NCBI RefSeq assembly: GCF_965641715.1 | Contig: NZ_OZ282456.1 | Strand: one strand, 5' to 3' | From: Escherichia coli | Lineage (GTDB): Bacteria; Pseudomonadota; Gammaproteobacteria; Enterobacterales; Enterobacteriaceae | DNA: 46,125 bases | In this document: positions 30,886-45,810 of the stretch, piece after piece | How the letters are laid out: every line of letters starts with the position of its first letter | Position numbering within the stretch: the stretch's first letter is position 1 | The notes under the pieces: generated by a model | The model's input: only the letters and a program-made list of their open reading frames with translations | Databases searched by the model: none | What the model was told of the DNA's origin: nothing | Made by a program: the position numbers and the translations under genes

Positions 30886-31176
30886 ATGGCTAATAAGAAA
30901 AGTAGTAAAGAAGATATAGAAAAGAAGGAAGATGTTGCTCAAACATTTGTATATATAGGACCAACAATCCCTCAACTCTCAATTTTGAAGCATAAACTAT
31001 TTAAGAATGGCTTATCTCCAGAGTGTAAAAAATTAATATCACATATTCCTGGTGCAAAGTGTTTGTTTGTGGCAACCAGTGATTTTGCAGATGCAGAGAA
31101 AAGACTTTCTGATAAAACCAGTGTCGAGTATGTAATGTACTCTAGAGTTTCTTCTTCTATCATGGAGATTAAATAA
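30886..31176 (+). CDS. Hypothetical protein
   Basis: 96-aa ORF immediately upstream of the sheath gene. Confidence 0.3.
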   Translation: MANKKSSKEDIEKKEDVAQTFVYIGPTIPQLSILKHKLFKNGLSPECKKLISHIPGAKCLFVATSDFADAEKRLSDKTSVEYVMYSRVSSSIMEIK

Positions 31177-32639
31177 TGGGATATCGCCACGGTATTTATA
31201 TATCTGAACTGGCTACATCTATAACTCCTCCAGTGCAAGTTAGTGCTGGGTTGATTGTCGCATTTGGTACGGCTCCTGTTAATCAGTTAGAAGATCCAGC
31301 CTCAGCGGTAAATAAACCTATCATTGCTTATACATACGCAGAGGCCGTATCTAAAATAGGATATAGCACAAACTTCGAGAAATATACTTTAAGCGAAGTA
31401 ATTAAAGTCGCATTTGGAATATATGGTGTTGCGCCAGTTGTATTTATCAATGTGCTTGATCCAGCAAAGCATAAGAAAGACGTTACTGATGAGTTAGTAA
31501 AACTTTCTGGCGGGAAAGGTACGCTCTCTAACGATGGTGTCTTATATAAATCTGTTGTTGTGAAAAAAGCAGATGGTGATTCACCTGGGTTAACGGTTGA
31601 TACCGATTATGTGCTGGCGCTGGATGATAATGGCTATACGGTCATTACAGCTATTAGCGGAGGAAAAATTACCGAAAAAGACGCTACTCTTAAGGTTAGT
31701 TATACGCATCTTGATCCCGGTGCCGTAACTAAAAATGACATTATCGGTGGTGTGGATTCCAACACTAAAGCCAATACAGGGCTTGAGTTACTGTCAGATG
31801 TGTATCCCCGCTTCAAGTTAGTTCCTGGACAAGTGATTGCACCTGGATTTAGTTCTGATAGTGAAGTTGGTCAGCTAATGGCGGCTAAAGCCGCGCTGAT
31901 TAGTGAATTGTTCAAAGCAGAAGCTATAACGGATGCGCCGACCGATAAATCTACTATCAGTGATTACTCGGCTGTTCCTGAATGGAAACAGAACAATAAT
32001 CACATGGCCGCTAACCAGACAGTGTGCTGGCCGATGGTGAAACTTGGTGACAATATTTACCATCACTCAACCCATTTAGCGGCCGCAACATGCTTGCTGG
32101 ATAGTCAGTATGGTGATATTCCATCACGTTCTCCGTCAAATATAAAACTACAGATGGACGGTGCTGTACGTAAAAATGGCAGTGAAGTATGGCTTAACAT
32201 TAGCCAGGCAAACTACTTAAATGGACAGGGGATTGTAACAAGCCTTAATTTTGATGGTTGGAAATCATGGGGAAACCGTAATGCTATTTATCCAACATCT
32301 ACAGACCCCAAAGACGCATTTCGTGTTTGCCGACGTATGTTTAACTGGGTGGGTAATACGTTAATTCTTTCGCATTGGTCAAAAATAGACAATCCTGCAA
32401 ACCGTCGATTAATTGAATCGATTGTTACAAGTGCGAATATTTGGCTTAACGGCCTCACAGGTAATCAGGATATTGCAGGTGGTGTTGTTACCTTTGATCA
32501 GTCTGAAAACACGATTACGTCATTAATGGACGGGATTGTTAAATTCCATGTAAAAATGACACCGTTCTCACCTGCCAGAGATATAGAGTTCGTCATGGAA
32601 TATAATCCTGATTATCTGCTGAACTTGTTTTCTGAATAA
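31176..32639 (+). CDS. Contractile tail sheath protein
   Basis: 487 aa, followed by tube gene; Mu/P2-like order. Confidence 0.8.
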   Translation: MGYRHGIYISELATSITPPVQVSAGLIVAFGTAPVNQLEDPASAVNKPIIAYTYAEAVSKIGYSTNFEKYTLSEVIKVAFGIYGVAPVVFINVLDPAKHKKDVTDELVKLSGGKGTLSNDGVLYKSVVVKKADGDSPGLTVDTDYVLALDDNGYTVITAISGGKITEKDATLKVSYTHLDPGAVTKNDIIGGVDSNTKANTGLELLSDVYPRFKLVPGQVIAPGFSSDSEVGQLMAAKAALISELFKAEAITDAPTDKSTISDYSAVPEWKQNNNHMAANQTVCWPMVKLGDNIYHHSTHLAAATCLLDSQYGDIPSRSPSNIKLQMDGAVRKNGSEVWLNISQANYLNGQGIVTSLNFDGWKSWGNRNAIYPTSTDPKDAFRVCRRMFNWVGNTLILSHWSKIDNPANRRLIESIVTSANIWLNGLTGNQDIAGGVVTFDQSENTITSLMDGIVKFHVKMTPFSPARDIEFVMEYNPDYLLNLFSE

Positions 32640-32655: not shown

Positions 32656-33177
32656 TTGAGCAATCAAATTCCTGAGAGACTTATTAACTTTACAGTATAC
32701 GGTGAGGGAAACCGTATTATCGGTGTTGCTGACGCAAAGCTGCCATCAATTGAGATGATGACAGAAACTGTTAGTGGTGCAGGTATCGCTGGAGAGCTTG
32801 AGAGCGGAACGCTGGGGCATTTCAAACCAATGACTGTCTCTCTTAAATGGCGAACTCTGACCTCTGCTGGTACAAAATTATTTCTATCCTCATCTCATCA
32901 GGTAGATTTTCGCGGTAGCCAGCAGGTTTATGATGCAGGAACAGGAAAATATAAAACGGTTCCTATTCGGGCTTCAATGAAGCTAAACCCTAAAAAACTG
33001 GATTTAGGTTCGCTACAGGTGGCAAAGGCTACTGATTCAGAGAATGAATTTGAAGTTCTCTATATCAAATTATTTATTGATGGAAAAGAAGTCCTGGAAA
33101 TTGATAAGTTGAACTTTATTTGTATCTTTGATGGTGAAGATATATTAAAAAGCGTTCGTGATGATTTAGGTTTATAA
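32656..33177 (+). CDS. Tail tube protein
   Basis: 173 aa; TTG start with AGGAGG upstream; follows the sheath. Confidence 0.7.
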   Translation: MSNQIPERLINFTVYGEGNRIIGVADAKLPSIEMMTETVSGAGIAGELESGTLGHFKPMTVSLKWRTLTSAGTKLFLSSSHQVDFRGSQQVYDAGTGKYKTVPIRASMKLNPKKLDLGSLQVAKATDSENEFEVLYIKLFIDGKEVLEIDKLNFICIFDGEDILKSVRDDLGL

Positions 33178-33186
33178 GGTGACAAA

Positions 33187-33468
33187 ATGGAAACCGTTAA
33201 ATTAAGTAAAGAATATCGTTTTGAAGACTTTGAGCCGGTGACTGAACTCAACCTTGATTTAGACAACCTAAAAGGCAGTGATATTTTAGAGGTATCGGAC
33301 TTACTGCAATCTCAAGGGCATGTTTCAGTTCAGACATCACTTGATAATAAAGTCCATGCAGCCTTGGCTGCTCGCTGTATTGGTCGTCCAATAGAGTATC
33401 TGAATGGATTACCAGCGAAAGACTTTGTTAAAGTTTGTCAAAAGGTACAGAATTTTTTGCTCTCGTAG
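33187..33468 (+). CDS. Tail assembly chaperone
   Basis: Small ORF between tube and tape measure; 3' end overlaps a second frame. Confidence 0.5.
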   Translation: METVKLSKEYRFEDFEPVTELNLDLDNLKGSDILEVSDLLQSQGHVSVQTSLDNKVHAALAARCIGRPIEYLNGLPAKDFVKVCQKVQNFLLS

Positions 33469-33617
33469 GTTTTGATGAGCAAAAACCTATTGATAAGCAA
33501 ATAATGAGGGCCGCGAGTTCTCTATCTCAATCATCTCAATCAACACCTATATCCTACTGGCTTTCGCTTCGGTTGAGGCGAATCGTCGCATGGATTGACG
33601 TGTTTAATGAGGATTAA
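33435..33617 (+). CDS. Tail assembly chaperone frameshift extension (-1 frame; expected to be translated as a fusion from 33187)
   Basis: Overlapping -1 ORF; candidate slippery heptamer T_TTT_TTG at 33453-33459. Confidence 0.4.
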   Translation: MSKGTEFFALVGFDEQKPIDKQIMRAASSLSQSSQSTPISYWLSLRLRRIVAWIDVFNED

Positions 33618-33622
33618 TACTA

Positions 33623-36415
33623 ATGGCCAGCAATAAGAACTTTAAGCTGGCTTTTGAAATTGGCGGCAAAGTTGCCGCCTCTCTCCCCAAAAGTTTTACT
33701 ACAGCTAATCAGGCTGTTGCTAAATTAAATGCAGAGCTTGCTGGATTAACGAAAGAACATGGGGAAATTCAAAAGCTACAATCTGTAAAAGTAAAGGTTG
33801 GACAGACTGCCCTCGAATATCATAAAGCTGCTGCTCGCGTTGAAGAGTTACAGAAGCAAATAAAAAACACGGCCAATCCAACCAGAGCGATGCTTCGTGA
33901 CTTTGAGAAGGCAAAAACACATTCATCAAATTTACGAGCATCACTACGTTCTCAGCGTGAAGAACTGGCCGCTTTAAAGTCTGCGTATCAGGGAGCTGAT
34001 ACATCTGCCAGAGCTTTAGCCTCAAGAGAGAAAGAGCTTAAAGCAAGCATTGATCGTAATCGTGAGGCTCAGGCCCGTAGCGTTGAGCAGGTTAACCGCT
34101 ACAGAACGGCTTTGGCTTTAGCCAGAGCAAATGTTCAGCAAGTGAAAAAACAGCAGGAGGAACTTAACCGGGCATTAGAAAAACAACGTATTGATAAAAT
34201 TAACAGCTATAAAAATGCGTTGGCTGAAGCACGGAAAAATGTTCTTGCAGTAAAACGTGCTCAGGAGGAGTTAAACCGCGCGTTGGAAAGGCAGCGTGAA
34301 TTGAAGCGAGAGCATCTTGGTGAGGCAAAGAGTCAACTTGTAAGGTCAGGATTACAAACTGGTGCTGTAGCGGCTGGTGCATTTGCTGCTGCTAACAATG
34401 CAGCAAATTTCAATCGTGAAAACAAAATGATTGGTCTTACGGCAGATATGAAGCCGGAAGAAGTTCAGGCGATGGGGCAGGCGATGCTTGTTACTGGAAC
34501 GGCCACCAACCAGTTTGCATCTGATATTCAGGCCGCTCAGGGTTTTCTTGTCGCTGCTGGGCAGGATTATAAAGAGGCTCAGGCGAATCTACTAACTATT
34601 GGGCGAACAGCTACAGCTACTGGCTCTGATATCCTCGATGTCTCGAAAGCATCATTTACATTAAGTGACTCATTGAAGATTGATCCATCTCAAATGAAGT
34701 CTGCAATGGGGATTCTGGTTCAGGCAGGGAAAGAGGGAAACTTTGAATTTAAAGATATGGCCAAAAATCTTCCTGTGCTTGGTGCTCAGTTCCAGGCATT
34801 AAAAATGGGAGGTAAAGAAGCCGCCGCGACGATGGGGGCAGCTTTGCAGATAGCTCGCAAAGGTGCTGCAACTTCGGATGAGGCTGCTAATAATATGAAC
34901 AACTTTTTGGCGAAAATACTTTCCCCTGAAACACTAAAAAAAGCAAAGAAAAATTTCGGTGTAGATTTATATAAAATTGTCACAACAGCGCAGAAAAAAG
35001 GGAAGAATCCATTCGAAGCTGCAATGCATTCTGTCATGAAAATGACTAAGAACGGAGATCAGAAGTTACTTGGTGAGCTATTTGGCGATATGCAGGTTCA
35101 GAACTTTGTTCGTCCGATGATTCAAAACTGGAAGGAATACCAGAGAATCAAAGCAACATCTCTTGGGGCTGGAAGTGCTGTTATTGACCGCGATTTTGCC
35201 AACATAACGAAAGACAATGCGGAGCGATTGAAACAATTACGTATTCAGGCTAGCAATGCATCATTAAGTTTTGGTCAGGCCTTGCAACCAGCTTTGAATG
35301 CCGCGCTTAGTGTTTTGGTTCCGCTGATTACAAAAATTAGTGAATTTGTAGCTAACAACCCCAATTTTGTGTCTCAGATTGTGATGGCGGCAGGTGCGTT
35401 TCTAACCATGAAAAGTGTGGTTATAGCGTGTAGGGTAGCTATGCTGGCTTTATCTGTAGCGACAAAGCTAACACCCTTCGGGTGGATTCAGATGGCTATA
35501 TCTGCGCTGGTTGCCGCAGGAATATTGCTCTATCAGAACTGGGATAAGATCAGAGATTATGCTGTCAGAGTTTGGCCTTCTGTTAAGGAATATACAGTTA
35601 AATCATTTGAGGCTATAAAAAACTTTATCTTAAACTTTGACCTCAATGGATGGATTATATCTATGTTTGGTAAAGCATGGGATTATCTTTCCAACATAAA
35701 CTGGAGTTCGGCAGGAGTAAGAATTTACAGTACATTAATTAGTGCTTTTAAATGGATGTCTCCGCTTCCGTTCTTAATTAAAGCATTTAAACTTACAACA
35801 AATTACCTTTCTGGCATTAACTGGAGCGAAACAGGAAAGAAAATCATAGATACACTGGTATCTGTTTTTATGCGTTTTTCACCCGTTGGACTCTTTATAA
35901 GAGCATTTCAATCTGTAACAGCTTATTTGTCTGGAATAAACTGGAGTGAGTCAGGCGCAAAAATAATTGAGACGTTAATCACAGGGATAAAATCAAAAGC
36001 AAATGCTCTAATCAATGAGGTGAAAGGCGTTTTTTCTTCTGTTCGTGAGTATTTACCGTTCTCTGATGCGAAAAAAGGTCCATTCTCACAGCTAACAAAG
36101 TCAGGTGGTGCAATAATGACTACTCTGGCATCTGGTGTTAGCAGAAATAACAGCTTACAGAATGCAATCGCAACCCAGTTCGGGCAATCAAATTTATCAC
36201 CTCACGGGATCTCTGCTGCCGGGAGTTCTGGACTTCGCCAGAACGTTAACGCTGTGACTGGTGGAATAACCTATTCACCTGTAATCAATCTTCCGGCTGG
36301 TTCACCAAAGGAAACTGAGGCGGCAGCTAAAAGAGCATTAGATGCGGGATATTCTGATTTTGAGAAGAAATTGAGTGCTCATATGTTCCAACAACGGAGA
36401 TTAAGTTTTGGATGA
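33623..36415 (+). CDS. Tail tape measure protein
   Basis: 930 aa; coiled-coil N-terminal half, hydrophobic central segments, internal repeats (GINWSE x3). Confidence 0.85.
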   Translation: MASNKNFKLAFEIGGKVAASLPKSFTTANQAVAKLNAELAGLTKEHGEIQKLQSVKVKVGQTALEYHKAAARVEELQKQIKNTANPTRAMLRDFEKAKTHSSNLRASLRSQREELAALKSAYQGADTSARALASREKELKASIDRNREAQARSVEQVNRYRTALALARANVQQVKKQQEELNRALEKQRIDKINSYKNALAEARKNVLAVKRAQEELNRALERQRELKREHLGEAKSQLVRSGLQTGAVAAGAFAAANNAANFNRENKMIGLTADMKPEEVQAMGQAMLVTGTATNQFASDIQAAQGFLVAAGQDYKEAQANLLTIGRTATATGSDILDVSKASFTLSDSLKIDPSQMKSAMGILVQAGKEGNFEFKDMAKNLPVLGAQFQALKMGGKEAAATMGAALQIARKGAATSDEAANNMNNFLAKILSPETLKKAKKNFGVDLYKIVTTAQKKGKNPFEAAMHSVMKMTKNGDQKLLGELFGDMQVQNFVRPMIQNWKEYQRIKATSLGAGSAVIDRDFANITKDNAERLKQLRIQASNASLSFGQALQPALNAALSVLVPLITKISEFVANNPNFVSQIVMAAGAFLTMKSVVIACRVAMLALSVATKLTPFGWIQMAISALVAAGILLYQNWDKIRDYAVRVWPSVKEYTVKSFEAIKNFILNFDLNGWIISMFGKAWDYLSNINWSSAGVRIYSTLISAFKWMSPLPFLIKAFKLTTNYLSGINWSETGKKIIDTLVSVFMRFSPVGLFIRAFQSVTAYLSGINWSESGAKIIETLITGIKSKANALINEVKGVFSSVREYLPFSDAKKGPFSQLTKSGGAIMTTLASGVSRNNSLQNAIATQFGQSNLSPHGISAAGSSGLRQNVNAVTGGITYSPVINLPAGSPKETEAAAKRALDAGYSDFEKKLSAHMFQQRRLSFG

Positions 36416-36626
36416 TTATAGAACGGTTCAAGGGGACTCATGGGATAGTATCGCGTTAAAGTTGTATGGTAATGAGTACCTGTCTTATCTTCTTATTGAT
36501 GCTAATACTGAGCACCGCTTTACGGTGCTTTTTTCTGCGGGAATTATTCTTAAAGTTCCTGATGCTCCGGTTATGCCAATATCAGTAAACAATTTGCCTC
36601 CGTGGAGACGCAATAGTGTTACGTAA
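36408..36626 (+). CDS. Small tail protein (LysM-like)
   Basis: 72 aa after tape measure; YRTVQGDSWDSIALKLYG resembles a LysM motif. Confidence 0.4.
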   Translation: MDDYRTVQGDSWDSIALKLYGNEYLSYLLIDANTEHRFTVLFSAGIILKVPDAPVMPISVNNLPPWRRNSVT

Positions 36627-37617
36627 AACGCTTTTTGATGTTATATATCAGAATGTAAATATTACCGCTCATATGTCACCTGATGTTTTGTCAATGTCTT
36701 ATACAGATAATGAAGATGGTCAGGTCGATGATATTTCTATTATATTAAAAAATGATGATGGGAAATGGTCTGGAGACTGGACACCTAAAAAGGGTGATTT
36801 TATTGATTTGAGCTTTAAGCCTATAAATCAAATCGTCCTTGAGTGCGGGAAATTCCAGGTAGATGGCATAACTTGCTCTGGACCACCTTCTGTTGTTGAG
36901 GTAACTGCTGTTTCTGTTCCTGTTTCATCAGGCATTAGACGTGATTTAAAAAGTAATGCATGGGAAAAAACAACTCTTAAAGATATAGCAACTTCTATAG
37001 CTAAATTAGCTAACCTTGAACTGTTTTTTCTTATTGATGGTGATAGTAATCCATATTATGCGCGTGAAGATCAAATGGAGGAAAGCGATTTAAAATTTCT
37101 CCATCGACTTTGCCAGGATGAAGGGTTGTCGTTAAAGGTCACTGATAGCCAATTAATAATATTTGCTCAAGAGATGTTTGAGCAAAAAGATCCTATCGCT
37201 ACGCTTACGTTAGGTATTGATGAGATAATCAGATATAGCTTTAGCACACAATCTACAGATTTGTATAAAAGTTGCACGTGCAAATATCGCGTACCTAAAA
37301 AAAGAAAGTCGCTTTCGTATACTTGGGTAGATCCATCCGTAGAAGAAGGGTCGAATCTTAAGATAAGAAAACTGGTAGCTAATTTAGATGAAGCAAAACG
37401 TAAGGCAAAGGCTGCTTTGCGGATTAAAAATAGATATCAAAATACAGGATCTTTAGTATTGGTTGGAGACACCAGATTGGTTGCTGGTGTAACTATAAAT
37501 CTTGACGGATTCGGTTCATTTTCTGGAAAATATCTTATATCGAAAGCTGTGCATTCAATTGGGGCTAGTGGTTATACCACCTCGATTGATGTCCGAAGAG
37601 TAATTAATGGGTATTAA
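36616..37617 (+). CDS. Baseplate hub / late control gene D-like tail protein
   Basis: 333 aa; position after tape measure in Mu/P2-like tail order. Confidence 0.55.
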   Translation: MLRKTLFDVIYQNVNITAHMSPDVLSMSYTDNEDGQVDDISIILKNDDGKWSGDWTPKKGDFIDLSFKPINQIVLECGKFQVDGITCSGPPSVVEVTAVSVPVSSGIRRDLKSNAWEKTTLKDIATSIAKLANLELFFLIDGDSNPYYAREDQMEESDLKFLHRLCQDEGLSLKVTDSQLIIFAQEMFEQKDPIATLTLGIDEIIRYSFSTQSTDLYKSCTCKYRVPKKRKSLSYTWVDPSVEEGSNLKIRKLVANLDEAKRKAKAALRIKNRYQNTGSLVLVGDTRLVAGVTINLDGFGSFSGKYLISKAVHSIGASGYTTSIDVRRVINGY

Positions 37618-37619
37618 TT

Positions 37620-38240
37620 ATGAATGATTTAGAAACATTATTACGTCAGACTATAAGAGTTGGCGTTGTTTCTGATATTGATGATGGTGATGTTACAGCA
37701 AGAGTTACTTTCGATGATCAGGATAACGTCACTTCGGCAAAGTTATCAGTTATTGTGAAAAATACGGATAAGAATGCTGATTACTGGATGCCAGATATTG
37801 GTGAGCAAGTTTTGTGTATCTTTCATCCCGCAGGGCCGCAACAAGGTTTTATTCTTGGTAGTTTTTATGATGAAACACAGAAGCCGCCATCTAATACGGT
37901 TAATAAACGCGTCATTAGATTTAATAACGGAACTCGTATTGAGGTAGACAGAGAATCTAATTTACTCCTTGTTGATGCTGTCGGAGATGTAACCGTTAAG
38001 GCTACAGGAACCGTAACTATTGATGCTCCAGAAACCATCATTACCGGAAATGCTACAGTTGAAGGATTACTAACCTTCAAAGGTGGAATGAAAGGATCTT
38101 CTGCTGGAGGTGTTGCAGCTACAATTTCTGGGGATGTTAAGGTTGTTGGTGGTGATATAGATGTTGATGGGATTAAATCTAAAGGCCACCATCACACAGC
38201 TCAGGGGGAATACGCTCCGACAACGGAGGCTCAGGCATGA
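37620..38240 (+). CDS. Baseplate spike protein (gpV-like)
   Basis: 206 aa; beta-helix-like repeats GDVTVKATGTVTIDAPE...GDVKVVGGDIDVDG. Confidence 0.7.
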   Translation: MNDLETLLRQTIRVGVVSDIDDGDVTARVTFDDQDNVTSAKLSVIVKNTDKNADYWMPDIGEQVLCIFHPAGPQQGFILGSFYDETQKPPSNTVNKRVIRFNNGTRIEVDRESNLLLVDAVGDVTVKATGTVTIDAPETIITGNATVEGLLTFKGGMKGSSAGGVAATISGDVKVVGGDIDVDGIKSKGHHHTAQGEYAPTTEAQA

Positions 38241-40746: not shown

Positions 40747-43065
40747 GTGAGTAAATTATTCTTTACGATGACTGACGCCGGGCGTCAGGAGCTGGTTAAT
40801 GCCAACAAAACAGGAACAAATAAAGTTGAGATTGTTTCTGTTGGTTTAGGTAGTAGATATTATGTCACGTCAACTTCACAAACAAATATAACAAACGAAA
40901 TAAAACGACTTACCACAATAGGTGGCAAAGTTGTTTCCCCTGATACAATTCATGTAACAGCGAAGGATGATAGTAAAGATGAGTATGTTGTCCATACAAT
41001 AGGATTGTATACGAATAAGGGTACGTTGTTTGCTGTATACTCACAAGAACAAGCAATAATAAATAAAGCATCATCTACTATCGCTTTAATATCAAGTGAT
41101 ATAGCAATTAAAACTCTTGATACTAAAAATATTACATTTGGTGATATTGAGTTTATTAATCCTCCCGCGACCGAAACTGTTGTTGGGGTGGCAAGGTTTG
41201 CTAATGAACAAGAAATTGATGCAGGTACAGATGATTCCCTTGCTGTTTCAGCAAAGCGGCTTAAGCAAGCCATTGTGAAACATGAGCAATCACGTAATCA
41301 TCCCGATGCAACTTTAACCTCAAAAGGCTTTGTTCAACTTAGCAGCGCCACCAATAGCTCGTCTGAAACGCTTGCTGCGACGCCTAAGGCTGTTAAGGCA
41401 GCATATGACCTGGCTAATGGCAAATACACCGCACAGGACGCTACCACGGCGCGAAAAGGGATTGTTCAGCTCAGTAGCGCCACTAACAGTGATTCGGAAA
41501 CGCTGGCCGCAACACCAAAGGCTGTTAAGGCAGCGTATGATCTTGCGGCCGGAAAGGCTCCGTCCAATCACACGCATTCGTGGGAGCAGATAACAAATGT
41601 GCCTGTAGCTTCACTGACAGTAAGGGGAATCACTCAGCTCAGTAGTGCAACCAACAGCACGTCTGAAACACTGGCCGCGACATCGAAAGCGGTAAAGGTG
41701 GTAATGGATGAAACGAACAAGAAAGCGCCCTTAAACAGTCCTGCGCTGACCGGAACGCCAACAACACCAACTGCGCCAAAAGGTACTAACAATACTCAGA
41801 TCGCAAGCACGGCTTATGTTATGGCTGCGATCGCTGCCCTCGTGGACTCGTCGCCTGACGCACTGAATACGCTGAACGAGCTGGCTGCGGCGTTGGGCAA
41901 CGACCCGAATTTTGCGACCACCATGACTAACGCGCTTGCGGGTAAGCAACCGAAAGATGCCACCCTGACGGCGCTGGCCGGGCTTGCTACTGCGGCAGAC
42001 AAGTTTCCGTATTTTACGGGGAATGATGTCGCCAGCCTGGCAACCCTGACAAAAGTCGGGCGGGATATTCTTGCGAAATCGACCGTTGCTGCCGTTATCG
42101 AATACCTCGGTTTGCAGGAAACGGTAAATCAGGCTTCTGGCGCATTACAGAAAAACCAGAACGGTGCAGATATTCCGAATAAAGATAAATTCATACAAAA
42201 CACAGGGGCCTGTCGTGCATTTAGCGGTCAGACTGATATCGATGGTTCACAAGGTGCATGGTCGACAGTTGCATTTATCTCGTGGCTGGAGAATAACGGA
42301 GCTTTCCGACATCCATACTGGATGTGTAAAGGGTCATGGTCCTATGCCAGAAACAGGGTTATTACGGATACCGGTTGTGGAAATATCTGCCTTGCCGGAG
42401 CCGTGATTGAGGTTATGGGAACCCGCGGCGCAATGACCATACGCGTTACCACGCCGAGCACGTCCAGCGGTGGCGGAATTACTAACGCTCAATTCACTTA
42501 TATTGATCATGGTGATGCTTATGCCCCCGGCTGGCGACGAGACTACAACACGAAAAACCAGCAGCCTGCATTTGCTTTAGGGCAAACAGGAAGCAGGGTT
42601 GCAAATGATAAAGCTGTTGGCTGGAACTGGAATAGCGGTGTTTATGATGCAGATATCAGCGGTGCATCGACATTAATCCTCCACTTCAATATGAATACGG
42701 GGAGCTGCCCTGCTGTACAGTTCCGCGTGAATTACAGGAACGGCGGTATTTTTTATCGTTCAGCGCGTGATGGTTATGGATTTGAGGCTAACTGGTCAGA
42801 GTTTTACACCACGACCCGCAAACCCTCTGCGGGAGATGTTGGTGCATACACGCAGGCAGAATGTAACTCAAGGTTTATTACAGGTATTCGCCTTGGCGGT
42901 CTGTCATCTGTTCAGACATGGAATGGTCCCGGCTGGTCTGACAGGTCAGGTTATGTCGTTACGGGTTCAGTTAACGGAAACCGTGATGAATTAATTGATA
43001 CAACTCAGGCAAGGCCAATTCAGTATTGCATTAATGGGACGTGGTATAACGCGGGGAGTATTTAA
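40747..43065 (+). CDS. Tail fibre protein (constant N-terminal part plus currently expressed variable C-terminal part)
   Basis: 772 aa; three copies of the fibre repeat [19 protein letters not shown]; crossover site inside the coding sequence at 42104-42128. Confidence 0.8.
42104..42128. other. Left inversion crossover site (gix/cix-like) inside the tail-fibre gene
   Basis: ACCTCGGTTTGCAGGAAACGGTAAA; matches the reverse complement of 45158-45182 at 24 of 25 positions. Confidence 0.7.
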
Positions 43066-43067
43066 TT

Positions 43068-43601
43068 ATGATGCACTTAAAAAATATTACTGCTGGCAAC
43101 CCTAAAACAAAAGAGCAATACCAGCTAACGAAACAATTTAACATCAAATGGCTTTATACAGAGGATGGGAAAAACTGGTATGAGGAACAAAAGAACTTTC
43201 AGCCTGATACGTTGAAAATGGTCTATGACCACAACAACGTTATTATTTGTATTGAAAAGGATGTTTCAGCAATTAATCCAGAAGGCGCAAGCGTCGTTGA
43301 GGTTCCTGATATTACAGCAAATCGCCGGGCTGATATTTCTGGTAAATGGATGTTCAAAGATGGCGTAGTGGTAAAGCGAACTTATACCGAGGAAGAGCAG
43401 AGGCAGCAGGCGGAAAATGAAAAGCAAAGCCTGCTACAGCTCGTTAGGGATAAAACCCAGCTATGGGACTCACAGCTACGGCTGGGCATCATTTCCGACG
43501 AGAATAAACAAAAATTAACCGAGTGGATGCTCTATGCGCAGAAAGTCGAATCTACAGACACCTCCAGCCTGCCAGTAACATTTCCCGAACAACCTGAATG
43601 A
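43068..43601 (+). CDS. Tail fibre assembly protein (current orientation)
   Basis: 177 aa; paralogous to the minus-strand 43630-44160 product (shared [13 protein letters not shown] and [12 protein letters not shown] segments). Confidence 0.7.
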
Positions 43602-43629
43602 GACAAGGCCCGATCGCGGGCCTTAATTT

Positions 43630-44160
43630 TTATTCAGGCTTTTGTGGCCATTCAGGATTTGCCGTATCCACACGGCTGACCAGAACACTGTAGCGTTCCC
43701 ATGCTTCCAGTCGTGTGCGTTCCTCGTCTGTTGCCATATTCAGCCTGACAGCGCGTTCCAGCGGCTGGATGACTGATTCAGCTTCGGAAAGCAATGCGGC
43801 CTTTTGTGATTCGCCTTGTTGTTGCTGTTCGTCTGCCGTATAAATCCGTTTAACTACAGCTCCATCCTTAAACATCCACTTTCCTGAATCATCAGCGCGG
43901 CGGTTGGCTGTAATATCAGGAACCTCAACGACGCTAAAACCTTCAGGGTTAAGCGTGGAGGCATCTTTAGTGATGGCGACAATAATATTATTTGCATCGT
44001 AAACAATCTTTATTGTGTCTGGCTGAAAGTTTTTCACTTCCTCATACCAGTTTTTATCGTCTTCGGACCATAACCAGATAACATCAAAATTCTTTGTTAG
44101 CTGATATTGTTCTTTCGTTTTAGGATTTCCAGACTTAATATTTTTTAAATGCTGCATCAT
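43630..44160 (-). CDS. Tail fibre assembly protein (alternative orientation)
   Basis: 176 aa; paralogue of 43068-43601 on the opposite strand. Confidence 0.7.
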
Positions 44161-45156
44161 TTACACCTGTGCGACGTTATACCATGTGCCATTGATGTAT
44201 TTTTGTATTGGCCTGAAGATGGCTTCATCATCGCCATCTACTTCACCAATGATTCTTAATCCGGTAATTGCGTGTCCGGCTTTTTCATAACGACCACCAC
44301 GCGCCATCAATTGAACAACTCGCGTACCCAGGCGAACATCTCTCACATATCTGGAATCAAAATTGCCATAGTTGCCAGGAATAACTTGCGAGCCACAAAG
44401 CCAGTTACCGTTATTGTCCATGTACGCCTGACCATCGGTGCCATTGGCTGTCCTTGAGTTATTAATCATGTAAAAACCAAACTGGTAGTTACCAAGTCCA
44501 CCGACAAAAAATTTGCGTTCTGCATGGTCTTGTCTTAACAAAGCCTGCGCAGAACTTGTTGATACTGCGTTTCTACCAAAAATGACATTCTGGTTTCGCA
44601 TATCAATCCATGAGGTTGAGCCACTATTAATAGCAAACCTGTTTGCATACACCCAGGCGTTAGTTGTTATATCTCCTGTAACATCCAGACCATGCCCCAT
44701 AGTTATGCGGCCAGTTCTGAGATTAAGCGTAAAGGGACGTAGTGGCCCTATATTACCATTTTCCCCCTCATTCTCTCGTGTAGGGATGATATGCAGGCAT
44801 TCTTCAGAACGGCGAAAAATGGCACCAAAAGATGAATTAAATATCCTCAGTGCATTGACTGTCGATATTTTTACTTCACTGCTGAAAAGAGCTTTAACAA
44901 GAACATACAAAGCATCCCATTTAAGATTCATCAGGTCTTTTGTTGTGGTGCTTTGTTTGCTTCTCCATTTGAAATATTCATTGCCGTTGTCGCCTGTCTC
45001 AAACCACATGTATGAATCAGTGTCACCATCGGCATCATTTTTAAATCCAATCTTCGCCCAGTCAGTATTTCGAATCCAGGCAAGGATTGAGTCATTTTCA
45101 AAAGTAAGCCCACCGGACAAAGTATCGCCATTTTTTTGCACGGCGTTACCAGCCCT
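44161..45156 (-). CDS. Alternative tail-fibre C-terminal segment (silent; no own start, would fuse to the constant part after inversion)
   Basis: Open minus-strand frame continues to the crossover site and encodes LGLQETVN there, identical to the plus-strand fibre at the left site. Confidence 0.65.
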   Translation of the reverse strand, partial: RAGNAVQKNGDTLSGGLTFENDSILAWIRNTDWAKIGFKNDADGDTDSYMWFETGDNGNEYFKWRSKQSTTTKDLMNLKWDALYVLVKALFSSEVKISTVNALRIFNSSFGAIFRRSEECLHIIPTRENEGENGNIGPLRPFTLNLRTGRITMGHGLDVTGDITTNAWVYANRFAINSGSTSWIDMRNQNVIFGRNAVSTSSAQALLRQDHAERKFFVGGLGNYQFGFYMINNSRTANGTDGQAYMDNNGNWLCGSQVIPGNYGNFDSRYVRDVRLGTRVVQLMARGGRYEKAGHAITGLRIIGEVDGDDEAIFRPIQKYINGTWYNVAQV

Positions 45157-45157
45157 G

Positions 45158-45182
45158 TTTACCGTTTCCTGTAAACCGAGGT
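45158..45182. other. Right inversion crossover site (gix/cix-like)
   Basis: TTTACCGTTTCCTGTAAACCGAGGT; contains TTCCTGTAAACCGAGGTTTT, resembling the Gin/Cin crossover sequence as recalled. Confidence 0.7.
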
Positions 45183-45255: not shown

Positions 45256-45810
45256 ATGCAATATGGTTATGCGAGGGTGTCAACTTTTGACCAGAATTTG
45301 GAATTACAACTGGAGGCGCTCAGGAGTTTAGGATGTGACCGGATTTTTGAAGATAAAATATCCGGTGCTAAATCAAAACGACCAGGACTTGATAAGCTAC
45401 TTAAGGTGTTACAGCCGGGCGATACGGTTATTGTCTGGAAGCTGGACCGAATGGGGCGTTCTCTGATTCATCTTGTTGATTTACTTAACCATTTTTTATC
45501 AAACAACATTGAGTTTATTTCGATTACGGAAGGGATAAAAATTAGCACTTCAATTGGCCGCTTTGCCTACACGATGCTGAGTGCAGTCGCAGAGATGGAG
45601 CGGGAAAATATGATTGAAAGAACGCGTGCAGGATTGGCGGTGGCAAGGGCTAACGGCAGGATAGGAGGACGCCGCTCAAAATTGGCACCAGAGCAATGGG
45701 AACAGATCGGAAGGCTTATTGCGAATGGTGTTTCACGTAAGCGGATAGCGATTATCTTCGATGTTACCTTATCCACGCTTTACCGCAGGTTTCCGGCTGG
45801 GAATCATTGA
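45256..45810 (+). CDS. Serine recombinase, DNA invertase (Gin/Cin/Hin family)
   Basis: 184 aa; N-terminal YARVSTFDQNLELQ with catalytic Ser context, C-terminal HTH; adjacent to the invertible segment. Confidence 0.85.
   Translation: MQYGYARVSTFDQNLELQLEALRSLGCDRIFEDKISGAKSKRPGLDKLLKVLQPGDTVIVWKLDRMGRSLIHLVDLLNHFLSNNIEFISITEGIKISTSIGRFAYTMLSAVAEMERENMIERTRAGLAVARANGRIGGRRSKLAPEQWEQIGRLIANGVSRKRIAIIFDVTLSTLYRRFPAGNH

Follow-up and report, generated by a model that had tools for sequence, protein, structure and literature searches.

The locus described here raises a simple question. In the 46,125-nucleotide stretch of DNA that we analysed (hereafter, the window), an open reading frame for a tail assembly chaperone overlaps a second one in the -1 frame, and it may be asked whether the downstream frame is a gene of its own, a stretch of non-coding sequence that happens to be open, or the second half of a longer protein reached by ribosomes that slip back by one base. 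We argue below that the last of these is very probably correct: judged from the sequence and its relatives, positions 33453-33459 are predicted to direct a programmed -1 ribosomal frameshift of the type described for the lambda genes G/GT and the P2 genes E/E+E'.

The window is a complete circular phage-plasmid of E. coli. It corresponds to the rotated reverse complement of E. coli plasmid pRHB38-C13_5 (CP055628.1, 46,125 bp, circular), from which it differs by four SNPs (1454, 9602, 37026 and 40761) and by one inverted segment of 3 kb. Its replicon genes encode RepA, ParA, three proteins with a ParB-N domain and a RelE/ParE toxin-antitoxin pair, and full head, tail and lysis modules are present as well. 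Identity over the region is 99.6% with Yersinia phage vB_YpM_39 and 98.7% with the E. coli phages vB_EcoM-613R2 and 473R2. Among complete E. coli genomes, 77 of 77 matching places, found in at least 70 genomes, were located on plasmids and 0 on chromosomes. With respect to the inverted segment, it measures 3.06 kb (about 42104-45182), holds the C-terminal part of the tail-fibre gene together with the tail-fibre-assembly genes, and has exactly the opposite orientation in CP055628.1. The inverted repeats AACCTCGGTTT(G/A)CAGGAAACG flank it, a gene annotated as 'recombinase family protein' adjoins it (about 45256-45810), and it looks like a Gin/Cin-type invertible host-range switch of which both orientations have been caught.

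The chaperone frames are part of a contractile-tail module with the gene order sheath, tube, chaperone, tape measure, X, D and V, which is laid out as follows:

31176-32639: sheath gene, on the basis of phrog_23
32656..33177, + strand: tail tube gene (PF04985 Phage_tube, E=3.5e-44)
33187-33617, + strand: chaperone ORF pair, between the tube and tape-measure genes
33623..36415, + strand: tape measure protein gene (930 aa; PF10145 PhageMin_Tail, E=1e-20)
36408-36626: gpX-like gene (Pfam PF05489, 21.1 bits, under the 22-bit cut-off)
36616-37617: gpD gene (Pfam)
37620-38240: gpV gene (Pfam)

The gpX-like ORF (72 aa, LysM-type 'tail protein X') shares 8 nt with the 3' end of the tape-measure gene and also overlaps the start of gpD; it is missing from the PLSDB gene table of CP055628.1 and is annotated as 'tail protein X' in vB_EcoM-613R2.

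Within the chaperone locus itself, we distinguish the following features:

33187..33468, + strand: frame-0 tail assembly chaperone gene, 93 aa from ATG to TAG, analogue of lambda gpG and P2 gpE
33435..33437, + strand: TTG that opens the listed -1 ORF, a mechanical ORF start and not a real start
33453..33459, + strand: slippery heptamer T_TTT_TTG in the X_XXY_YYZ register, with the Phe codon TTT as the P site and the Leu codon TTG as the A site
33466..33468, + strand: frame-0 stop TAG, 6 nt past the heptamer, inside the -1 codons GTA-GGT (Val-Gly)
33459..33617, + strand: extension in the -1 frame (52 codons, then TAA), predicted to be translated solely after the slip, analogue of lambda T and P2 E'
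join(33187..33459,33459..33617), + strand: predicted fusion CDS, 143 aa, with the junction ...KVQNFL/ALVGFDEQ...

The chaperone gene has its own Shine-Dalgarno sequence, AAGGTGA, 5' of the ATG, and its 3' end reads AAT-TTT-TTG-CTC-TCG-TAG in frame-0 codons. The -1 frame has a stop at 33429-31, is open from 33432 and ends with TAA at 33615-17 (the listed ORF being 33435-33617), so that it shares 37 nt with the chaperone ORF. Its stop lies 5 nt from the tape-measure ATG (33623), and the Shine-Dalgarno sequence of the tape-measure gene, GAGGA, sits within the end of the -1 extension. The earlier note on this DNA had described the ORFs 33187-33468 and 33435-33617, their overlap and an in-register TTTTTTG at 33453-33459, and every one of these coordinates was confirmed. 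The 143-aa fusion is annotated in none of the four records of this phage group that we inspected (0/4), namely two E. coli plasmid records, vB_YpM_39 and vB_EcoM-613R2, in all of which positions 33469-33622 (154 nt) appear as an intergenic gap.

How improbable is such an arrangement by itself? In the + strand ORFs of at least 80 aa in the window, in-register XXXYYYZ heptamers of any kind occupy 63 of 12,228 codon positions (0.5%), and an in-register TTTTTTG occurs a single time, at 33453-33459. For an overlap of 12 codons, the chance of meeting any heptamer is about 6%, and that of meeting TTTTTTG specifically is about 0.1%. These counts make the site by itself only mildly improbable, and the stronger test is therefore the comparative one.

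Firstly, the family to which the protein belongs is that of the tail assembly chaperones. PGAP labels the 93-aa ORF as 'phage tail assembly protein', and its match to phrog_3140, 'tail assembly chaperone', has an E of 8.7e-43. Against the Pfam family PF10109 (Phage_TAC_7, tail assembly chaperones E, 41 and 14), for which the curated gathering threshold is 25 bits, the 93-aa chaperone is a marginal pass with 25.4 bits; the 143-aa fusion scores 23.7 bits, the homologues of X29 and KLER1-1 score 29-30, and P2 E scores 47.8. With the extension included, the score against phrog_3140 is 162.4 bits instead of 147.7, and the match then reaches residue 137. The -1 extension alone matches phrog_30074, a family of unknown function, with E=1.7e-31. 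A family profile search of 1.84 billion representatives returned 1731 relatives, mostly of 91-130 aa, in which the profile match ends at positions 90-92, that is, at the slip site. In BFVD, the best matches to the fusion were a chaperone of 147 aa (38% identity) and entries named 'Tail assembly chaperone' and 'Tape measure chaperone'; no relative of the fusion was found in the PDB, either by sequence or by fold. In the AlphaFold2 model of the fusion, built with a 16-sequence alignment, the protein is compact and confidently predicted (pLDDT 88.7, pTM 0.81) and a single helix, residues 77-94, crosses the junction. As a separate observation, many relatives of about 190-230 aa (P0019-P0023) are tandem duplications of the chaperone N-domain, a two-domain variant of the family, each again ending in an ...F(L/F) slip-site context.

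Secondly, the slip site is conserved. The relatives compared were collected by tblastn against phage records and by exact-protein look-ups, to which single-protein scans of viral contigs added few lineages; P0014 and P0018 were left out as products of frame-broken assemblies. The intermediate relatives, with 73-78% protein identity, are from Salmonella, Citrobacter, Klebsiella, Hafnia, Enterobacter and Symbiopectobacterium. Over the fusion, alignment A3 gives 24-38% identity for the distant relatives, namely Vibrio X29 and R20L, Pararheinheimera KLER1-1, Faecalibacterium Epona, Paenibacillus Lily, Acinetobacter HFM1, Clostridium Saumur, Exiguobacterium vB_EalM-137, Dulem virus 34 and two IMG/VR contigs. 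Across 11 unique relatives, close or intermediate, the heptamer does not vary, and in the intermediate ones TTTTTTGCT and the TAG at +6 nt are unchanged, while flanking third positions are variable. Taken over 16 lineages of 24-78% identity, from Gamma-proteobacteria and Firmicutes, both a heptamer and a -1 extension (52-67 aa) are kept; counting the window, the heptamer is T6G in 13 lineages, T6C in 1, T6A in 1 and G_GGT_TTT in 1. To encode Asn-Phe-Leu as T_TTT_TTG takes three synonymous choices, with a joint probability of about 0.08 per lineage at the codon usage of this replicon, and because of this the repeated retention of the heptamer at saturated divergence is not a matter of chance. 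Two relatives depart from the pattern. Pd_22F (L033, a Paenibacillus phage) keeps the -1 extension, with the motif TPIPYWLELPL, and reads ...CAG GTT TTT ATC TTG GGG... at this place; no canonical in-register heptamer was found in it. Dulem virus 34 (L034) is the lineage that uses G_GGT_TTT, and in P0043, a related protein, the frames are joined at a point more downstream. The slip sequence is therefore not uniform across the family.

A rival explanation is that RNA polymerase slips at this site and the ribosome does not. In that case, one U would be added in the U6 run, and a fraction of the mRNA would carry the two frames in phase without any shift by ribosomes. The slip site is indeed a homopolymer run, and two metagenome contigs, L037 and L038 (proteins P0038 and P0062), have T7 in place of T6 and encode the chaperone plus extension as a single continuous ORF, so that a one-base insertion does give the same product. 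However, efficient slippage by bacterial RNA polymerase usually needs runs of roughly eight or more (reviewed in PMC5009743), and the run here is of six; the relative with G_GGT_TTT has only four T, which fits tandem tRNA slippage and not polymerase slippage; and for P2, whose heptamer is identical, the shift is reported to be translational. As for the T7 contigs, they are low-coverage assemblies, and L038, at 1.47x coverage, has other broken genes, among them the tube gene. Because of this, the seventh T is probably a homopolymer error, and we rejected P0038 and P0062 as evidence for natural fusions. We therefore consider transcriptional slippage very unlikely.

Thirdly, conservation of the -1 frame begins at the heptamer and not at a start codon. 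In the alignment of the 16 conceptual fusions, invariance is limited to Ala62, Phe90, which is the Phe of the heptamer, and Gly95. The latter is encoded in the -1 frame, four residues past the slip and ahead of any possible start codon, and an hGL motif comes directly after the slip site. Further downstream, the window and the distant relatives have the extension motif TP(I/V)xYWLxLP(L/I) in common. This bears on the proposal that the downstream frame is a separate small gene, translated from its own start at TTG 33435 or ATG 33504, or by re-initiation, into a free protein of 37-60 aa. A functional start of this kind is what the earlier note had named as speaking against a frameshift. The mechanical ORF list does give a TTG start at 33435, and the records of KLER1-1, R20L, Lily and Saumur annotate the downstream piece separately, as 'hypothetical protein' or 'tail assembly chaperone'. 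Against this stands the fact that neither candidate start is preceded by a Shine-Dalgarno sequence (none is present in AGACTTTGTTAAAGT, ahead of TTG 33435, or ahead of ATG 33504). Furthermore, TTG 33435 is lost in L015 and L024, in relatives of 75% identity and in every distant relative, and the -1 frame opens just 3 nt before the heptamer in X29 and 9 nt before it in P2. Outside the enterobacterial clade, ATG 33504 is not conserved, and the residues between the heptamer and this ATG, Gly95 included, are conserved, with indels that occur there in frame. An independent start for the downstream frame is thus unsupported, and we regard the separate gene as having scarcely any probability beside a fusion made by frameshifting.

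Finally, the -1 frame carries a coding signal of its own. When the variable columns of the alignment are sorted by frame-0 codon position 1/2/3, they number 37/24/73 upstream of the overlap and 11/41/21 downstream of the frame-0 stop, where the maximum is the third position of the -1 frame; the codon periodicity thus changes from frame 0 to the -1 frame at the slip site. We calculated dN/dS by the Nei-Gojobori method for 33468-33614 against five relatives. In the -1 frame, the values were 0.06-0.25 in the four comparisons for which the ratio is defined, synonymous sites being saturated in the fifth, and in the two other frames they were 1.4-6.9. On this sequence evidence, it is in the -1 frame alone that purifying selection acts on the extension. 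Two other ways of reaching downstream sequence were considered and rejected: stop-codon read-through, because frame 0 closes again after 11 codons and has a dN/dS >1, and a +1 shift, because the +1 frame closes at 33475 and likewise has a dN/dS >1. That the heptamer and the open -1 frame came together by coincidence, with 33469-33622 being a non-coding spacer, is hardly credible: PGAP and the deposited phage records leave these 154 nt unannotated and in-register heptamers of some kind are not rare, but the periodicity, the dN/dS well below 1, a -1 frame that all relatives keep open up to the start of the tape-measure gene, and the match of the extension to phrog_30074 all argue against it.

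In the intermediate relatives (about 75% identity), the stop of the -1 frame and the tape-measure start overlap as TAATG, and in all distant relatives the extension, of 52-67 aa, ends at or near that start. Synteny, family membership, the register of the heptamer, selection in the -1 frame, conservation and the lack of a conserved start together support the reading as a candidate -1 frameshift that had been put forward for this overlap.

The closest parallel in working is P2. Its RefSeq record contains E (91 aa) and an annotated E+E' -1 join with an in-register TTTTTTG, and the fusion that we reconstructed from it has the published 142 aa; the earlier note's statement that P2 E and E' use this same heptamer was thus right. 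A -1 shift at TTTTTTG, products of 91 and 142 aa and the lack of a downstream hairpin have been described for P2 (PMC3091744), and the same paper cites Christie et al. 2002, whose title speaks of a translational frameshift, and Xu et al. 2004 for the programmed -1 frameshift of E/E+E' in the FETUD tail operon. The window shares with P2 the identical T_TTT_TTG in the same register, the location of the gene pair between the tube and tape-measure genes, products of nearly the same size (93 and 143 aa), a comparable local context (KVQNFL in the window, KVVGFL in P2), and the lack of a downstream hairpin, of which none was found in the window. Moreover, the PF10109 match covers residues 7-85 of P2 E and residues 3-91 of the window protein, and in both the last position of the profile (position 78) falls on the Leu of the heptamer, so that the slip site is at a homologous position in the two. 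On the other hand, the pairwise similarity between the window protein and P2 E is not significant (BLASTP E=4.6, hhalign E=0.05). A search of the window extension against PF06528 (Phage_P2_GpE) gave nothing at E<=1, whereas P2 E+E' scores 76.3 bits, and the resemblance of the extensions is limited to a weak motif (TPISYWLSLRL against HWPPSELYPMSL, hhalign E=0.05). The frame-0 stop follows the heptamer at 6 nt in the window and at 18 nt in P2; the upstream Shine-Dalgarno-like sequence is AAGGT (-4.0 kcal/mol) in the former and AAGGTGG (-8.9 kcal/mol) in the latter; and the tail module of the window has the Mu-like order TMP-X-D-V-W-J-I, whereas that of P2 is distributed over split operons. Given the shared PF10109 N-domain and the missing PF06528 match, we conclude that the window has a P2 E/E+E'-like way of working in a separate branch.

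The closest homologue that we found with the frameshift already annotated as a join is that of Vibrio phage X29 (NC_024369), in which gp50 and gp49 are named 'lambda gpG analog' and 'lambda gpGT analog' and form a 147-aa join; this annotation is itself a prediction. The identity with the window is 45% by tblastn over the chaperone part and 38% over the whole fusion in A3. X29 has the same heptamer, the TAG at +6 nt and an extension with the TPIPYW motif, but it is another phage of another host, and its -1 frame opens closer to the heptamer, as described above. The tau/gamma gene of E. coli, dnaX, resembles the window in being a bacterial tandem -1 slip on X_XXY_YYZ. It has a Shine-Dalgarno sequence 10 nt upstream and a stable hairpin, with an efficiency of about 50%, and neither of these two stimulators is convincing in the window. 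Lambda gpG/gpGT, in turn, is alike in gene position, in having a shared N-terminus followed by a -1 extension that a few per cent of ribosomes make, and presumably in function. It differs in its heptamer, which is G_GGA_AAG, in having no detectable sequence similarity, and in belonging to a siphovirus and not to a phage with a contractile tail. In lambda, binding to the tape measure is the role of the shared domain, and the extension serves to recruit the tail tube subunit; the ratio is 30:1, and the efficiency in P2 is 2- to 3-fold higher (PMC5009743).

With these systems as a guide, the expression of the locus may be pictured as follows. Most ribosomes would translate 33187-33468, stop at the TAG and produce the 93-aa chaperone. 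In a minority, tRNA-Phe on TTT (33454-56, P site) and tRNA-Leu on TTG (33457-59, A site) would move back one base onto TTT_TTT, and these ribosomes would read GCT (from 33459) as their next codon and follow the -1 frame to the TAA at 33615-17. The product would be a protein of 143 aa with the same N-terminus and a 52-residue C-terminal extension (...NFL/ALVGF...). A tandem -1 slip of tRNA-Phe and tRNA-Leu on U_UUU_UUG is the most likely mechanism. The re-pairing of tRNA-Leu on UUU after the slip has a wobble mismatch, which counts against it. Tandem slippage after decoding of the Leu codon predicts the junction peptide VQNFLALVGFDEQKPIDK, and a slip in the P site before A-site decoding would give VQNFFALVGFDEQKPIDK instead. 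By analogy with lambda and P2, the slip efficiency is probably a few per cent to about 10%. By the same analogy, the shared domain would coat the tape-measure protein and the extension would recruit the tube protein, so that tails of the right length are made; neither chaperone protein would stay in the virion, and a fixed slip rate would set the ratio of the two proteins. This division of labour between the two domains is inferred from lambda, and the 143-aa fusion is probably an essential tail-assembly protein. The points that count against the frameshift are the lack of a convincing stimulator, the weakness of the upstream AAGGT, the missing PF06528 match, and Pd_22F, which does without the heptamer.

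Regarding stimulators, a downstream RNA structure was considered first. The single-sequence fold has a z of -1.72, which is not unusual, and the consensus fold of the alignment has -7.7 kcal/mol with one covarying pair and uses the heptamer itself in its outer stem. The consensus fold is thus weak and lacks covariation, and we rejected this structure as evidence. Upstream, the interaction of the AAGGT in the window with the anti-Shine-Dalgarno (-4.0 kcal/mol) is at the 29th percentile of a background drawn from this replicon only. A Shine-Dalgarno-like (A/G)AGGTG does recur about 4-6 nt 5' of the heptamer: it is present in the window (33441-33446), in P2 (L025) and in lineages L015, L018, L020, L003, L004 and L032, with -6.2 to -7.0 kcal/mol in several relatives, between the values of P2 and the window given above. 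It is partly forced by conserved Lys/Arg-Val codons. Similarly, a TAG exactly +6 nt from the heptamer is found in six deep lineages (L003, L005, L007, L028, L029 and L032). It always stems from an NTA codon (GTA, ATA, TTA or CTA), which specifies the Val, Ile or Leu preceding the invariant Gly in the -1 frame, a usage that suggests selection on the stop position of the chaperone or on a slow codon just past the slip. It could be speculated that the slip is tuned by these two flanking linear elements, the upstream (A/G)AGGTG and the +6 TAG, instead of by RNA structure, although we hold this to be unlikely. If linear elements of this kind do stimulate or attenuate the slip, the family would lend itself, as a natural series, to the study of how Shine-Dalgarno and stop-codon contexts at close range set a low -1 efficiency.

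What, then, does the locus add? The understanding of frameshifting or of tail assembly is left unchanged, since the feature is ordinary and expected and its kind is very well known. Its main value is one of annotation: the join(33187..33459,33459..33617) would correct a missing fusion. Beyond this replicon, it extends the P2-type T_TTT_TTG to a distinct and widespread PF10109 branch in phages of Proteobacteria and Firmicutes.
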